Source of the DNA: Mobula hypostoma
Lineage: Eukaryota
Direction of reading: 5' to 3'
Length of the DNA: 64,000 nucleotides
Assembly (NCBI RefSeq): GCF_963921235.1
Contig: NC_086108.1
Span: 22,506,001 to 22,570,000, forward strand
A model generated the notes under the pieces. The model made no database searches. It was not told the origin of the DNA and saw only the letters and a program-made list of their open reading frames with translations. Of this stretch, positions 2,701 to 59,600 are shown in pieces; the first letter of the stretch is position 1; every line of letters starts with the position of its first letter. Made by a program: the position numbers and the translations under genes.

Positions 2701-2948
2701 AAATAAACGTTCACAAGAATACGCAGTGATACAAAGCTTGCTTGGAGCCCTGAGAGGAGAAGGATGGGTATCTTTCCCTTTCAGCTGGGGTCTTACACTT
2801 ACACTGTTTGTCTAGCTTGTCAATCAGGGTAAATGGAACGATCTGCTCTCCTCGCTTGCACCCACAGGTTGTAAAGTCATTAATTGCTCTCCATCCAGGT
2901 TTCATCAAGCTCTCCCTTCATGTGTTCCTCCTGCAGTTCTGTTGGAGA

Positions 2949-3047
2949 ATGGCTGCCAGGGTTTGGACTCATAGCTACAGGTCTGCAGCGCTTTTCACCT
3001 ATTCCGTGTTTTTCCTTCTGTGGCGTGCCGAAACTCATGGCAATCTG
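2949..3047 (+). CDS. ADAMTSL2: First coding exon (signal peptide) of ADAMTSL2-like protein: MAARVWTHSYRSAALFTYSVFFLLWRAETHGNL
   Basis: ATG at 2949 in AGAATGG context, hydrophobic core, 99 nt, CTG|GTAAGT phase-0 donor that joins in frame to the exon at 23121. Confidence 0.75.
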
Positions 3048-18574: not shown

Positions 18575-19924
18575 GCATTGGCGCTGCTTCCTGTACACAT
18601 GCTGAGCTCGTTGACTTTATTAACTTTGCCTCCAACTTTCACCCTGCCCTCAAGTTTACCTGGTCCATTTCTGGCACCTCCCTCCCCTTCCTAGATCTTT
18701 CTGTCTCTGGAGACAGCTTATCTACTGATCTCTACTATAAGCCTACTGACTCTCAGAGTTATCTGGACTATTCCTCTTCTCACCCTGTTTCTTGCAAAAA
18801 TGCCATCCCCTTCTCGCAATTCCTCTGTCTCCGCCGCATCTGCTCTCAGGATGAGGCTTTTCATTCCAGGACGAGGGAGATGTCCTCCTTTTTTAAAGAA
18901 AGGGGCTTCCCTTCCTCCACTATCAACTCTGCTCTCAAATGCATCTCCCCCATTTCACGTACATCTGCTCTCACTCCATCCTCCCGCCACCCCACTAGGA
19001 ATAGGGTTCCCCTGGTCCTCACCTACCACCCCACCAGCCTCCAGGTCCAACGTATTATTCTCCGTAACTTCCGCCACCTCCAATGGGATCCCACCACTAA
19101 GCACATCTTTCCCTCCTTCCTCCCCCCCGCCTGCTTTCCGCAGGGATCGCTCCCTACGCGACTCCCTTGTCCATTCGTCCCCCCCATCCCTCCCCGCTGA
19201 TCTCCCTCCTGGCACTTATCCTTGTAAGCGGAACAAGTGCTACACATGCCCTTACACTTCCTCCCTTATCACCATTCAGGGCCCCAGACAGTCCTTCCAG
19301 GTGAGGCGACACTTCACCTGTGAGTCAGCTGGGGTGATATACTGCATCCGGTGCTCCCGATATGGCCTTCTAAATATAGGCGAGACCCAATGCAGACTGG
19401 GAGACCGCTTTGCTGAACACCTACGCTCTGTCCACCAGAGAAAGCAGGATCTCCCAGTGGCCACACATTTTAATTCCACATCCCATTCCCATTCTGACAT
19501 GTCTATCCATGGCCTCCTCTACTGTAAAGATGAAGCCACACTCAGGTTGGAGGAACAACACCTTATATTCCGTCTGGGTAGCCTCCAACCTGATGGCATG
19601 AACATCGACTTCTCTAACTTCCGCTAAGGCCCCACCTCCCCCTTGTACCCCATCTGTTATTTATTTTTATACACACATTCTTTCTCTCACTCTCCTTTTT
19701 CTCCCTCTGTCCCTCTGACTATACCCCTTGCCCATCCTCTGGGTTCCCCCCCCCACCTTTGTCTTTCTCCCTGGGCCTCTTGTCCCATGATCCTCTCATA
19801 TCCCCTTTGCCAATCACCTGTCCAGCTCTTGGCTCTATCCCTCCCCCTCCTGTCTTCTCCTATCATTTTGGATCTCCCCCTCCCCCTCCCACTTTCAAAT
19901 CTCTTACTCACTCTTCCTTCAGTT

Positions 19925-19960
19925 AGTCCTGACGAAGGGTCTCGGCCTGAAATGTCGACT
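19925..19960 (+). ncRNA. Minimal type I hammerhead ribozyme motif (3' pLTR), CpG-decayed
   Basis: AGTC-CTGACGA-AGGGTCTCGGCCT-GAAATGTC-GACT. Confidence 0.75.
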
Positions 19961-20231
19961 GTACCTCTTCCTAGAGATGCTGCCTGGCCTGCTGCGTTCA
20001 CCAGCAACTTTGATGTGTGTTGCCAGATAAATGTTGATCTGTTTAACAACGTTTTAACAAAACCAGTTTCACTTCACTTGCTTCAGATGCTACATTAACT
20101 TGATTTTTCTTTTGATGGTCTTCCAGTTTTAAGGCCCTGGTGAAAGCAATGCAACAGCGGCTATGCATTTTCCTGTGTGCATTGAGTATCAGACCGAATT
20201 GAGGAAATATAAGAAGACTTGCATAACAAAC

Positions 20232-30771: not shown

Positions 30772-31631
30772 TGTGACGAGAATACACATAAAATTAAGAT
30801 GTTTGCTGGCCTGGGCTAGCATCAGTGGCATCAGCAGTTGGTCTGCCACCTGCCCTCAGGGGAAGGAGAGATAAGGAACAATGGAGCAGCGTCTGGAGAT
30901 GTGTAATGAAGGGACGTGGGAGAGAGAGCTGTCTGGAGCGGCTTCCCCTTTGAACCTTGAACTGTTTGAAGTGGTGGACAGGCGATACCCCAGCAGGGGG
31001 ATAAAAAGGGACAGGTTCGCTAAGGCAGGACACACGCCACCCGAGGTAACGAGACCCTGGAAGCGGTGCGAATGTCACGAGTGGGTGAGAAGTATCAGAC
31101 AACGGCCAGGGTGGAAAGGTACGATCAGCGGGAACCCGGTGTGTGTCCGCCCTTGCCTGGGTGCCGGGTTCACTGCAGAGGATCGACCGCATTTGGAGGA
31201 GTGGTCACAGTCGGTGACCTCAGGTGACATCACCAAGGACCCGCCCAAAAGTTGCTTGTGAGCCATCTCGCCGGTCTGTGAGTGAAGCCGTGTCTGAATG
31301 ATCAGTTGTTCCTGTTCTATCTCTCTCTTCCCCCACCTTGTCCATTGCCATGGCAACGATTACTGTGAACTGAACTACTAACTGGACTGAACTTTGAGTC
31401 ATTTTGAAATTTGGTCATTTTCCCCCTAGACAACGATAGAGCTTGATTGATGCTGTTATCTTAATTCTGTGCACATGTGTGGTTAACATTGCTGAACTGT
31501 TGCATTTATTATCCTTTCGATTACTGTGTTGCTTGTTTCTTTAATAAAACTTTCTTAGTTCTAGTACTCCAGACTCCAACTGAGTGATCCATTTCTGCTG
31601 GTTTGGCAACCCAGTTACGGGGTACGTAACA
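30772..31631 (+). mobile_element. Solo LTR (Ty3/Gypsy-type by its 4-bp TSD), 860 bp
   Basis: Starts TGTGACG, ends CGTAACA; CAGC TSD at 30768-30771 and 31632-31635; the empty site gagacagcttatc is seen in the paralogous Penelope at ~18710; GATAAAA ~31000 and AATAAA ~31543. Confidence 0.9.
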
Positions 31632-32811
31632 CAGCTTATCCACTGATGTCTACTATAAGCCTACTGACTCTCTCAGCTATCTGGACTATTCCTCTTCTCA
31701 CCCTGTCTCTTGCAAAAATGCCATCCCCTTTTCGCAATTCCTCTGCCTCCGCCGCATCTGCTCTCAGGATGAGGCTTTTCATTCTAGGACGAGGGAGATG
31801 TCCTTTTTTAAAGAAAGGGGCTTCCCTTCCTCCACCATCAACTCTACTCTCAAATGCATCTCCCCCATTCCACGCACATCTGCTCTCACTCCATCCTCCC
31901 GCCACCCCACTAGGAATAGGGTTCCCCTGGTCCTCACCTACCACCCCACCAGCCTCCGGGTCCAACATATTATACTCCGTAAATTCCGCCACCTCCAACG
32001 GGATCCCACCACTAAGCACATCGTTCCCTTCCCCCCCTCTCTGCTTTCCGCAGGGATCGCTCCCTACGTGACTCCCTTGTCCATTCATCTCCCCCATCTC
32101 TCCCTACTGATCTCCCTCCTGGCACTTATCTGTGTAAGCAGAACAAGTGCTACACGTGCCCTTACACTTCCTCCCTTACCACCATTCTGGGCCCCAGACA
32201 GTCCTTCCAGGTGAGGCGACTGGGGTGATAAACTGTGTCCGGTGCTCCCGATGTGGCCTTCTATATATTGGCGAGACCCGACACCGACTGGGAGACCGCT
32301 TTGCTGAATACCTACGCTCTGTCCGCCAGAGAAAGCAGGATCTCCCAGTGGCCACACATTTTAATTCCACATCCCATTCCCATTCTGACATGTCTATCCA
32401 CGGCCTCCTCTACTGTGAAGATGAAGCCACACTCAGGTTGGAGGAACAACACCTTACATTCCGTCTGGGTAGCCTCCAACCTGATGGCATGAACATTGAC
32501 TTCTCTAACTTCTGCTAATGCCCCACCTCCCCCTCGTACTCCATCCGTTATTTTTTTTTTATACACACATTCTTTCTCTCACTTTTTTTCTCCCTCTGTC
32601 CCTCTGACTATACCCCTTGCCCATCCTCTGGGTTCCCCCCCACCCTTATCTTTCTCCCCGGGCCTCCTGTCCCATGATCCTCTCATATCCCCTTTGCCTA
32701 TCACCTGTCCAGCTCTTGGCTCCATCCCTCCCCCTCCTGTCTGCTCCTATCATTTTGGGTCTCCCCCTCCCCCTCCCACTTTCAAATCTCTTACTAACTC
32801 TACCTTCAGTT

Positions 32812-32847
32812 AGTCCTGACGAAGGGTCTCGGCCCGAAACGTCGACT
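32812..32847 (+). ncRNA. Minimal type I hammerhead ribozyme, best-preserved copy; predicted cleavage after GUC (32843)
   Basis: AGTC/GACT helix I, CTGACGA core, GGG/CCC helix II, GAA, palindromic ACGT helix III. Confidence 0.82.
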
Positions 32848-32896
32848 GTACCTCTTCCTAGAGATGCTGCCTGGCCTGCTGCGTTTACCAGCAACT

Positions 32897-50757: not shown

Positions 50758-51870
50758 CAACTGTACATATATGTACTTGTATATATGAGAATAAACTCTA
50801 ATTGGAGTTTGACTTTGTAGAACATGCCATTTGTGGCTCCGGGTCTTCTCTCTGATGGCCAGGAGCTTGTAGATTCAAGTTTTCCTTCAGAGAACTGAAA
50901 ACTTGAAGGACAGCATCTCTGACGGTACCAGCACTTCCTCAAAGTGTCTATCTGTGCATTATGCTGGTGTATTTGGGTTGCAGATTCAAACTTGAGATCT
51001 TCGAATGTGCAAACCATTACAGCTGTGATGATCTCTCACTCACAAGTGATATGACTTTGGGACTGGCATTGCCATTGCATTAAATACCAGTATACTCCAC
51101 TCTGTATCTCCACGCCTACTAATTTTTGCCATGATCTGGCTGGAATTAGATTAATTATGCATGGAATTTGCATCAGGAAACCCAGTGCTTTGACTGAACC
51201 TACACTATTCTAACTCACTGTAATGCAACCAGTAAAGTTTTAGGCACTAACATAGTTCCTTTTTTCTATATATTCCCTTCCACCCAACTATTAATTGTCA
51301 GTTACTACTCGAGTTGTACATTGAGAAGGCAGACTGGGTGTCAGGTGCTGATGTCACTGATGAGAAGTTTCTCTGGTAAGCCTTTTTCTTGAAGTCTGAA
51401 CCATCTTTATGAATGCTATTCTTCAAAATATTTATTATGGGGAAATTATGACAAAGATTTTTGATTAGAGGAGAGATCATACTGGATCTTGTACTAGTCA
51501 GTGAACCTGGTCAAGTGATAGATCTCTTGGTGTGCGAGTATTTCAGAGATGGTGACCACAGCTCCCTAACTTTTAGCACTGCTGTAGACAAGGATAGGTA
51601 TGGAAACAGAAGAGATTCTGTAGGTGCTGGAAATCTAGAGTAATGCACACAATGTGCTGGAGGAACTCAGCAGGTTAGGCAGCATGGAGGGGAATGAACA
51701 GACGATGTTTTGAGTGTGGGGATGTATGTAATTGGAGGAGGGCAAATTAGGATTGTGTTGGGCAGAAATGTGGAACTGTAAATCTAAAGCTTTTCAAGGA
51801 AATTCACAGTGGAACTGTGAAGTTTATTTATGGAGCACTTCCATGGGATTCTGTATAGCTTTGTCCCACT

Positions 51871-52137
51871 TCCTCTCTTCCTAGCGTGTCGCACCAGACA
51901 GTCAGCCATTCTTGTCTGGAGAGTAGTGTCAGGATTCGTCTCCTTTCGGACTAACTGAGTCATGGTATGAACGTTCCTGACTCGACCCTTGTTTTTTTCG
52001 AGGCCAAGTGGCTAGCTCAACGCTCAACCCGGTACGGATTGAAAGTGTGCTCGAGGGGTGGCCTGACTTGGATTTGAACTTGGGAGCCTTTGCTCCGAAG
52101 TCCGGCGCTAATGTCACTGCGCCAGCAGCCGGCCACG
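51871..52137 (-). mobile_element. tRNA(Arg-TCG)-headed SINE with 11-bp TSD; tail contains a candidate HDV-like fold
   Basis: TTTGTCCCACT at 51860-51870 and 52138-52148; - strand head ggccggctgctggcgcagtg..gcgccggacTTCGgagc..gttcaaatcc (A and B boxes). Confidence 0.85.
51928..51988 (-). ncRNA. Candidate HDV-like ribozyme (probably CpG-decayed)
   Basis: - strand GGGTC-GA-GTCAGGA-ACG-TTCATAC-CAT-GACTC-AG-TTAGTCCGAAAGGAGA-CGAA-TCCTGAC fits P1/P2/P3/L3/P4/J4-2 order. Confidence 0.5.
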
Positions 52138-52869
52138 TTTGTCCCACTGATACAGGGAAAGGATGGTAGGGTGAAGGAACCATGATTGATAAGAGAGGTG
52201 GCAAAATTTAGTCAAGTGGAAGAAGAAAGTGTACTTAAGATTTAGGAAGTAAAACTAAGAATGGATTCTTGAGAGCTTTGGGTTTGCAGGAAGGAGCTTA
52301 TGAAAGTAGAGCTAGGAGGGGACATGAGAAGGCCTTGGCATGTAGGATTAGGGAAAATCCCATGGAAGGGTGTTTTACATGTACTTGAACAGAAGAATGA
52401 CCAGAGTGGGTGTAGGACTGTTCAGAGATAAAGTAGGAATCGGAATAGGTCGGGGAGGTCCTTAACAAATATTTTGCTTCAATGCTCACCTATGAGATGG
52501 GTCTTGAGGAATGTGAGGTCAGCGTAAAACAGGCTAATCTGCTGGAGCACATTGAGGTTAAGAAAGGCAGTTTTGGAGCTTTTGGAAAATATTAGGATAG
52601 ATAAGTGCTTGGGGCTGGATGGAATATACTCCAGCTTGCTATGGGAAGCAAGGGAGAAGATTGTTAGGGAGTTGGTAATTATCTTTGTATCCCCAGTGGT
52701 CGAAGAGGATTTCTTCATTCAGGAAAGCTAATAGGGATATTTCTGGGAATTATGGACCAGTGAGTGTTATGTTAGTGGAGAGCAAGCTTATAGAGGGTAG
52801 GATTTATGAGCATTTGGAAAATCATAGTCTTATTAGGGATGATCATCTCGGCTTGTTAGGGAAAGTGAG

Positions 52870-56683: not shown

Positions 56684-59600
56684 TATAAGATATAGGAGCA
56701 GAAGCAGGCCATTCGGCCCATCGAGTCTGTTCCGCTATTCAATCATGGGCTGATCCAATTCTTCCAGTCATCCCCACTCCCCTGCCTTCACCCTATACCC
56801 TGGCTAATCAAGAACCTGTCTATCTCTGCCTTAAATACACCCAGTGACTTGGCCTCCACAGCTGCTCGTGGCAATAAATTCCACAGATTTACCACCCTCT
56901 GACTAAAGTAATTTCTCTGCATCTCAGTTCTAAAAGGACGTCCTTCAATCCTGAAGTCATGCCCTCTTGTCCTCGAATCCCTTACCATGGGAAATGGGAA
57001 ATAACTTTGCCATATCTAACCTGTTCAGGCCTTCTAACATTTGGAATGTTTCTATGAGATTCCCCCCCCCTCCCCCCCCCGGCCATTCTCCTATTCTCCT
57101 GAACTCCAGGGAATACAGCCCAAGAGCTGCCAGACGTTCCTTATACAGTAACCCCTTTGATTCCTGGAATCATTCTTGTGAGTCTTCTCTGAACCCTCTC
57201 CAATGTCAGTATATCCTTTCTAAAATAAGGAGCCCAAGACTGCACACAATACTCCATGTGGTCTCATGAGTGCCTTATAGAGCCTCAACATCATATCCCT
57301 GCTGTAATATTCTATACCTCTAGAAGTGAATGCCAACTTTGCGTTTGGCTTCCTCACAACCGCGCCGGCTGGTGGTGTAATGGCATCAGCGCCGGACTTT
57401 AGAGCAAAGGCTCCCGAGTTTGAATCCAGCCAGCTCCCTTGCACGCTTTCCATCCGTGCTGGGTTGAGTGTCGACCTACAACTGGGCCTTGTATAAATAA
57501 GAAAGCCTGCTTAAAAAAAAAGCCGTCATGACGACGTTCCAATGACTCCACTTGGGAGGGCTTTCTTCTTCACAACCGACTCGACCTGGAGGTTAACCTT
57601 TAGGGTACCTTGCACAAGGGCTCCCAAGTCCCTCGGCATCTCTGCATTTTGAATTTTTGAATTCTTTCCCCATCTAAATAATAGTCTGCCTGTTTATTTC
57701 TTCCCCCAAAGTGCATGACCATATACTTTCCAACACTATATTTCATTTGCCACTTCTTTGCCCATTTCCCTACACTGTCTGTCTGCAGGCTTTCTGTTTC
57801 CTCAACACTACCCGCTCCTTCACCTATCTTTGTATCATCGGCAAATTAAGCCACAAATCCATTAATACCATAGTCCAAATCATTGACATACATTGTAAAA
57901 AGCAACAGTCCCAACACCGACCCCTGTGGAACTCCACTGGTAACTGGCAGCCAGCCAGAATAGGATCCCTTTATTCCCACTCTGTTTCTGTCAACCAGCC
58001 AATGCTCCACCCACGCTAGTAATTCCATGGGCTTTTATCTTGCTAAGCAGCCTCATGTGCAGCACCTTGTCAAAGGCGTTCTGATAATCCAAGTACTCCA
58101 CGTCTTTTGGATCTCCATTGTCTACCCTGCTTGTAATTTCCTCAAAGAATTGCAGTAGGTTTGTCAGGCAGGATTTTCCTTTCAGGAAACCATGCTGGCT
58201 TTGGCCTATCTTGTCATGTGCCTCCAGGTACTCCGTAATCTCATCCCTAACAATTGATTCCAACAGCTTACCAACCACTGATGTCAGGCTAATAGGTCTA
58301 TAGTTTCCTTTCTGCTGCCTCCCACCCTTCTTAAATAGCGGAGTAATATTTGCAATTTTCCAGTCATCTGGTATAATGCCAGAATCTATCAATTCTTGAA
58401 AGATCATCATTAATGCCTCCGCAATCTCTCCAACTACTTCCTTCAGAACCCGAGGATGCATTCTTTGATATTAGTCACCAGTTTCCTCTTCATAATTCAT
58501 CTTTTCCTTCTGAATGACCTTCCGCAAGTTTTTAAAAGCTTTCCAATCCTCATCTTCCCACTAGCTCTGGCTTCCTTGTATGCCCTTTCATTTGCTTTAA
58601 TTTGGCTCTGATTTCACTTGTCAGCCACGGTAGTGTCCTTCTTCCCTTTGAAAATTTGTTCTTATTTGGGAATATATCTGTCTTGCACTTTCCTCATTTT
58701 TCATAGAAACTCTGCTGTCCTTCCTGCAAATGTCCGTTTCCAGTCATTTTCGGCCAATTCCCCTCTCATGTCATTGTAATTTCTTTTATTCCACTGAAGT
58801 GCAGACACATTGGATTTTATTTTTTCCCTCTCAAATTTCAATGTGAACTCGATCATATTGTGATCACTGATCCCTAAGGGTTCCTTAACCTTAAGCTCTC
58901 TTATCACCTCCTGATCATTGCACAACACCCAATCCAGCACAGCTGATCCCCTAGTGGGCTCAACAACAAGCTGTTCTGAAAAACCATCCCTTAGACATTC
59001 TATGAATTCTCTCTCGAGGTCCAGTACTGACCTGGTTTTCCCAATCCACTTTTATGTTGAAATCCCCAATGATCATCATGACATTGCTCTTCTGACACGC
59101 CTGTAATTTGTAATCTACATCCCAACTGCTATTTGGAGGCCTGTATACAACTGCCATTAAGGTCCTTTTACCCTTGCCATTTCTTAACTCAATCCAATCC
59201 TGTGTCATCTCTTTCCAATGATTTAATATTATTTCTTATACACCACCCCCTCTGCCATCTAACCTATCTTTCCAATATACCGTATATCCTTGGATGTTCA
59301 GCTCCCAATTGCAGCCATCCTTTCGCCAAGTTTCAGAGATGGCCACAACATCATATTTGCCAATCTGTAGCTGAATTTCAAGATCGTCCATTTTATTCCT
59401 TGTGCTGCGTGCATTCAAATACAACACTCTCAGTCCAGTATTTGTTGCCTTCTATTTTAACTGCATCATGCCTCTATTGCCCTGTAACTCATGCCACTGC
59501 CTTTGATTAAGCCTCACCTCCTGCCTTTTCTTTCTGTAATCTCTGTTGCACACTATCTTTGATTTATTTCTGTTTTTCCCTTCCTCAGCCCTATCACTCT

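Follow-up and report, generated by a model that had tools for sequence, protein, structure and literature searches.

The SINE and its internal ribozyme-like segment

The window, a 64,000-nt stretch of Mobula hypostoma DNA, contains a 264-nt SINE at 52134..51871 on the minus strand, with an 11-nt target-site duplication on either side. Direct reading of the sequence placed a 61-nt candidate ribozyme string inside this element, at 51988..51928 on the minus strand, as the initial annotation had given it. The parts are listed below, with the basis of each assignment in brackets.

52138..52148, minus strand: 5' target-site duplication, 11 nt (sequence)
52060..52134, minus strand: tRNA-type head (sequence)
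52124..52114, minus strand: Pol III A-box-like motif in the head (sequence against the box consensus)
52079..52070, minus strand: Pol III B-box-like motif in the head (sequence against the box consensus)
51990..52059, minus strand: body, common to a sister SINE family with a different tail; A-run at the junction end (comparison with the sister SINE)
51928..51989, minus strand: ribozyme-derived segment, LINE positions 1-62 (SINE/LINE comparison, Rfam)
51989, minus strand: position of LINE G1, the cleavage-site base; A in the SINE (A in 47/49 SINE copies, G in 11/15 LINE copies)
51988..51984, minus strand: P1 5' strand (fold assignment)
51981..51975, minus strand: P2 5' strand (fold assignment)
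51974..51972, minus strand: P3 (fold assignment)
51971..51965, minus strand: L3 (fold assignment)
51965..51967, minus strand: loop-3 block, CGC in the LINE and TAT in the SINE family, with G25 corresponding to 51966 (A in 48/49 SINE copies, G in 14/15 LINE copies)
51964..51962, minus strand: P3' (fold assignment)
51961..51957, minus strand: P1' (fold assignment)
51956, minus strand: position of LINE U37, the wobble partner of G1; G in the SINE family, A in this copy (column counts)
51950..51941, minus strand: P4 loop region (fold assignment)
51938..51935, minus strand: J4/2 (fold assignment)
51938, minus strand: catalytic cytosine position (C75), retained (C in 49/49 SINE copies)
51934..51928, minus strand: P2 3' strand (fold assignment)
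51914..51927, minus strand: LINE 5' UTR positions 63-76, which pair with the tail as the 5' arm of a hairpin that is damaged here (LINE comparison, folding)
51882..51912, minus strand: tail, the LINE 3' end (last codons of the LINE ORF), bearing the hairpin 3' arm (27/31 positions identical to the LINE tail)
51871..51881, minus strand: GGAA-type terminal repeat (sequence; type found in 20/90 copies)
51860..51870, minus strand: 3' target-site duplication, 11 nt (sequence)

The motifs at 52124..52114 and 52079..52070 resemble the A and B boxes of Pol III promoters. ARAGORN called no tRNA in the SINE heads of 20/20 loci and Rfam returned nothing in the head of one family SINE, while the head of the sister SINE matched tRNA-Sec alone, and weakly (E 1.3). 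The body at 51990..52059 may resemble the 5' UTRs of RTE elements. A search of supplementary text gave no confirmation of an RTE origin for the body.

This copy is decayed, diverging from the family majority by 8.8% (family median 5.4%). Six private changes fall within its fold, including 51965, 51958, and 51951; P3 is broken and P1 is weakened. The loop-3 G25 position is A here, a point absent from the initial annotation. Against the Rfam CPEB3 model this copy scored 13.9 bits (E 0.35), a match that appeared only in 201-nt scans; a scan over the 4 kb around the site reported no ribozyme. A loose HDV descriptor, set to the tolerances of the initial annotation, matched once in the window, at this site, and once in 40 resampled windows. 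The first TTTT on the SINE strand is at window position 51428 (minus), ~450 nt beyond the element, which would give a Pol III transcript of ~700 nt from this copy. Among many other repeats, the window also holds a 1.3-kb pair with 92% identity (18713-20009 and 31631-32896).

The SINE family

Searching the 3.48-Gb genome yielded many full-length relatives at 86-89% identity. A pattern with 526 matches covers 28 of 70 tail-selected copies, which gives an estimate of ~1,300 SINE copies; the 4,736 search candidates include the sister family sharing the head. The family is dispersed and non-coding, with a LINE-like tail and target-site duplications of 7-13 nt in 40/75 copies (1/75 in shuffled pairings). 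The 3' ends of 90 copies comprise the 20 GGAA-type repeats and 70 A-runs. Family-level contigs from four runs of presumed RNA type cover the SINE and carry no information on transcript ends.

Column counts were made over 49 distinct SINE copies from 60 loci, with duplicates dropped; these were unselected on loop 3 and ranked by likeness to this copy. The family majority has the nested double-pseudoknot order P1, P2, P3, P1.1, and P4, in keeping with the HDV-type fold first proposed, and the whole fold is kept in both SINE tail subfamilies. Both defects of this copy are repaired in the family, as predicted. P3' reads CGT, with G in 37/49 copies, and the GG assigned to P1.1 returns (first place G 33, A 15, T 1 of 49; second place G 49/49). 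Its presence was correctly foreseen, but its register was not: the first G is the changed U37 of the LINE wobble, which is U in 15/15 LINE copies. The CGAA reading of J4/2 proved private to this copy, the family having CCAA in 48/49 copies, with C75 invariant and A78 in 47/49. Loop 3 of the family reads UUCAUAU, and P1 has 5 bp with A1 opposite G37, compared with the 6-7 bp ending in a G1-pyrimidine pair that are typical of HDV-like ribozymes.

One family SINE copy scored 22.8 bits (E 4e-4) with the Rfam CPEB3 model; this value, the 13.9 of the present copy, and the 26.2 of a LINE copy all lie below the gathering score of 35. A strict HDV descriptor passed 0/49 SINE copies versus 2/15 LINE copies, and the loose descriptor passed 32/49 SINE copies. 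Because the stems are identical between SINE masters and copy variation arose after insertion, covariation within the family is uninformative. Three SINE copies (L220, L287, and L288) have deletions inside the fold, possibly acquired after insertion.

The parent LINE

A pattern with the canonical loop 3 gave 13 matches. None of the 13 has a SINE head; each starts with the fold, or a few bases into it, and then continues into LINE sequence. When the 13 loci were extended, seven showed a colinear element, 2.8-3.1 kb long and terminated by TGA repeats, and we place the parent LINE at ~3.03 kb with a TGA-repeat tail. Target-site duplications adjoin base G1 in L076 and L081. One broken copy encodes endonuclease and RT domains (PF14529, PF00078), three other fragments of the same copy gave no family match, and the C-terminus contains a Cys/His knuckle. 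The element agrees with the published description of Vingi, with a compact single ORF, an APE endonuclease followed by RT, and no RNase H, and its 5' end resembles, by eye, the printed Vingi-2_Gav sequence. Judged on domains and layout, the parent fits a Vingi/Ingi-type LINE and not R2.

The 5' end of a LINE copy matched the CPEB3 model at 26.2 bits (E 3e-5). Its fold has a 6-bp P1 closed by G-U, a loop 3 reading UUCACGY, and compensatory differences from CPEB3 in P1, P2, and P3; P1.1 is one pair only. The LINE thus begins with an intact CPEB3-like HDV fold, a predicted ribozyme. In a comparison set obtained with a query downstream of the fold (30 loci, of which 15 distinct copies reach into the fold), 10/15 copies start at the predicted cut site, base 1, and the other five start within nine bases. 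Two LINE copies carry A in place of G25, or comparable chance decay. The SINE and LINE copies are similar in age, at 3.0% and 3.6% non-CpG divergence.

Several further features of LINE copies were observed. Those truncated at the 5' end (L087-L116) cluster just behind the fold, with 14/29 starting at positions 62-76 and none at 10-61 (p 2e-7), which suggests that the template RNA adopts the fold and that reverse transcription halts at it or at the 5'-3' pairing. Inverted 5' pieces ending at ribozyme positions 2-5 are present in L084, L085, L086, and L350/L351, the outcome expected of twin priming on an RNA whose 5' end is the cut site. L083 is internally deleted, with 1-481 joined to 2794-3033, and in L039, L042, L340, L348, and L358 the 5' piece extends to about position 105 and stops at a short direct repeat. 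Additional G-runs precede base 1 in L074, L097, and L305.

Differences between the SINE and LINE folds

The LINE and SINE majorities are identical at 57/62 fold positions. Differences are confined to positions 1 (G to A), 23-25 (CGC to TAT), and 34 (T to G). They affect the two bases of the cleavage-site wobble and the G25-bearing loop. Relative to its parent, the SINE family is fixed for G1A, G25A, and U37G. Loss of G25 removes the U20-G25 reverse wobble of loop 3. Genome-wide, SINE-type cores have A at the G25 position in 526 pattern matches and G in 16 (542 total), the latter being the level expected from mutation after insertion. Tail-selected copies have TAT in 57/70 and G25 in 1, with 5 unparsed. 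There were 36 U37-type matches; the 30 examined were 28 LINE-type copies and 2 headed SINEs. Clustering of the changes at the core has p 5e-4 if they were five independent events and 0.014-0.06 if they were two or three, with a core set that was chosen after the data were seen.

Two other accounts of these columns were rejected. CpG decay is a poor cause of the loop-3 block: a single deamination does not turn CG into TA, and in the family none of the remaining four CpGs in the fold has been lost. An older SINE sub-lineage with G25 and G1 is not indicated by the 16 G25 copies, which are 3% of matches, occur with both tail types, retain G1 in 2/16 cases, and are all headed.

Published biochemistry gives a scale for such changes. 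A G25A ribozyme showed no cleavage in 60 s (PMC13635239), and G-to-A at the equivalent of G25 left no detectable cleavage in the Nasonia R2 ribozyme (PMC3774820). With the same change, giving the pair U23/A28, a ribozyme was 528-fold slower yet not dead, at 0.0033 per min with 17% cut in 2 h in vitro, and C23/G28 falls, by exclusion, among eleven inactive pairs (PMC3386971). A Nasonia R2 ribozyme with a 4-nt P1 is deviating yet still cleaves (PMC3774820). Given this cleavage with a short P1 and the residual activity of U23/A28, P1 length alone is too little to dismiss a shifted 5-bp register in the SINE. When folded without pseudoknots, the SINE body forms a 9-bp helix with the P1 5' strand that competes with P1 (pair probability ~0.47 vs 0.42).

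We consider it probable that this locus is a decayed copy of a tRNA-headed SINE carrying 76 bases from the start and 31 from the end of a Vingi-type LINE, in which the internal ribozyme fold was likely disarmed, since the family changed G1, G25, and U37 whereas the LINE keeps them. The CGT/GG restoration test is passed, yet it would have misled, because the disabling changes sit at other positions.

Cleavage footprint in the genome

Examination of 90 of 200 core matches gave 89 distinct SINE loci. All retain upstream SINE body, and 0/89 start at the cut site. Of the tail-selected loci (70 of 160 matches), 65 still have head or body; the remaining five begin within loop 3 (three) or beyond the fold (two), and 0/70 start at the cut site. 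Copies that retain G1 (15) or G25 (16) are likewise never headless (0/15 and 0/16). Compared with the LINE starts, the difference is strong (10/15 LINE versus no SINE; Fisher p 1e-10), and the upper 95% bounds on the headless SINE share are 3.3% (of 89) and 4.2% (of 70). By themselves, the missing headless copies show only that no cleaved SINE RNA was retrotransposed. For the LINE, RNA that begins at base 1 did give rise to new copies, and little or no cleavage of the SINE RNA is therefore the simplest reading. Three of the five truncated SINE copies (L258, L261, and L266) begin inside loop 3 versus 0/14 for the LINE (p 0.01, on small numbers), perhaps reflecting a looser core.

The initial annotation had proposed cleavage that splits head from tail. 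The three fixed changes and the lack of cut-site starts both speak against it, and the ribozyme-led passenger RNA proposed with it goes unsupported on the same grounds. On sequence criteria, the SINE segment behaves as a remnant of an HDV-type ribozyme and appears to fail as an active member on P1, G25, and the cut-site footprint.

Origin of the chimera and retention of the fold

The initial description of the SINE as chimeric is supported by sequence comparison: the head and body are common to the sister SINE, and the ribozyme region and tail derive from the LINE. The sister family has at least 40 copies in the genome, one of them in the window at 57364-57570 (plus strand) with the same head and body and a different tail that finishes in TTC repeats. 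Two LINE ends likely took the place of the 3' part of such an older SINE. The junction coincides with the pairing of LINE positions 63-76 to the LINE tail, a duplex of -27.2 kcal/mol that is matched by 3/500 internal windows, and the end-joining hairpin has a pair probability of 1.0 in the SINE majority. The SINE tail differs from this LINE at 4/31 places, two of them synonymous, and on account of these mismatches the true donor may be a sister LINE lineage; no LINE with the SINE's loop 3 or tail was present among the 90 of 200 core matches or the 70 of 160 tail matches. A search for a headless two-end mini-LINE family gave just sporadic deleted or inverted copies.

We propose that the LINE ribozyme cleaves, and that the SINE is transcribed by Pol III from its own head and copied by the LINE enzyme. 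An armed ribozyme would then strip the promoter from every new SINE copy, so that, following the argument of Kojima 2018, only a non-cutting master would keep its promoter and spread; capture would have been filtered for the disarmed version. Recognition by the LINE protein may be the reason why the SINE has retained both the fold and the hairpin that links the two LINE ends, a step that we consider about evenly balanced. Scaffold changes number 0 at 47 positions versus 5-6 at 45 positions outside, as counted by eye (p 0.011-0.025), which is modest evidence of selection on the fold scaffold.

The recognition step alone is challenged by a passive origin, in which the LINE copy that supplied the piece was damaged beforehand and the fold does nothing in the SINE; we rate this somewhat below an even chance. 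Few events would be needed, as the loss of G1 lies in the A-run of the junction and loop 3 changed as a single block of three bases. The two LINE copies with A at G25 or similar chance decay also speak for it. The in-fold deletions in L220, L287, and L288 point the same way, though they may postdate insertion. A passive fold sits less easily with the unchanged scaffold and with its retention in both tail subfamilies. The alligator SINE described below, by eye from its printed consensus, also keeps all stems.

Improbable, in our view, is a slow, leaky ribozyme that adopts the shifted register (a 5-bp P1 ending in G-C and a two-pair P1.1), cuts over hours, and serves as a decay timer. Such a ribozyme would account for the restored P3 and GG, the retained C75, P2, and P4, and the 32/49 descriptor passes, and the U23/A28 rate and the Nasonia short P1 offer precedents (PMC3386971, PMC3774820). 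The bounds on headless copies weigh against it, G25A, the short P1, and the competing helix would add up, and the G25 change abolished a retrotransposon ribozyme (PMC3774820). An active ribozyme that separates the Pol III head from the tail and frees a passenger RNA, as initially suggested, agrees with the fold order, the perfect P2, and the restored CGT and GG, but with A at G25 in 526/542 matches, the cleavage-site wobble gone, no headless SINE copies though LINE RNA starting at G1 is copied back, and P3 and P1 also damaged in this copy, we regard it as very improbable.

Comparison with known systems

The mammalian CPEB3 ribozyme is a single-copy intronic RNA. Its model (RF00622) is the best Rfam match for both the LINE and the SINE segment, and the LINE shares its loop 3 and the GU after P1'; the LINE differs in its 6-bp P1, its shorter P4, and a score of 26.2 against the gathering 35. 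The gharial LINE 5' end Vingi-2_Gav 2-74, as printed in the supplement of PMC5786205, looks nearly identical, by eye, to the mammalian CPEB3 model. We found no link between Vingi and CPEB3 in a literature search lying outside most subscription journals.

L1Tc/Ingi, R2, and RTE elements, as well as short elements derived from them, are reported to carry HDV-like ribozymes at their 5' ends (PMC4035085, PMC3774820, and PMC3414825). The parent LINE is like these elements in having the fold at base 1, where its copies start. Unlike them, the SINE has an internal fold behind a Pol III head and a changed active site. In the hagfish SINE1-1_EBu and SINE2-1_EBu, the 3' part of an older SINE was similarly replaced by two LINE ends; there the donors are RTE elements, and the word "ribozyme" is absent from the main text (PMC7245038).

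The architecture of a tRNA head followed by a Vingi 5' end is already published, for SINE2-1_AMi of alligator and SINE2-1_ACar of anole (PMC5786205). SINE2-1_AMi is like the SINE described here in having a tRNA head and then a Vingi LINE 5' end, with a match to Vingi-2_Gav positions 2-74. Read by eye from the printed consensus, this segment is a CPEB3-type ribozyme in which P2, P3, P4, and CGAA are kept, U20 is replaced by C and U26 by G, and P1 contains an A-C mismatch. The passages of PMC5786205 at hand identify no ribozyme in the alligator and anole SINEs, and Vingi is absent from the ribozyme-bearing clades named there. The present SINE belongs to another lineage and sequence; G25 rather than U20 is altered, the cleavage-site wobble is lost, and, compared with the alligator and anole SINEs, it has an additional body between the head and the Vingi part as well as a Vingi-type tail. 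Our search, made outside most subscription journals, Repbase, and Dfam, found no description of a disabled ribozyme in a tRNA-headed SINE; this family may already be named in Repbase or Dfam.

We tentatively suggest, while thinking it less probable than otherwise, that each time a Vingi-mobilised SINE arose, its ribozyme had to be disarmed. The present SINE and SINE2-1_AMi would have independently kept a CPEB3-type fold and broken the U20-G25 pair from opposite sides, and the HDV fold would have a second, non-catalytic job as the recognition module of the LINE enzyme. If the LINE protein needs the retained fold, this bears on template recognition by Vingi elements, a clade that is now employed for gene insertion. 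According to Kojima 2018 (PMC5786205), a ribozyme behind a SINE head causes 5' truncation, an argument put forward there to explain why SINEs often miss the extreme 5' end of their LINE donor. The SINE described here keeps that extreme 5' end, and with an intact parent in the same genome, the five differences between the two folds constitute a natural knock-out set.
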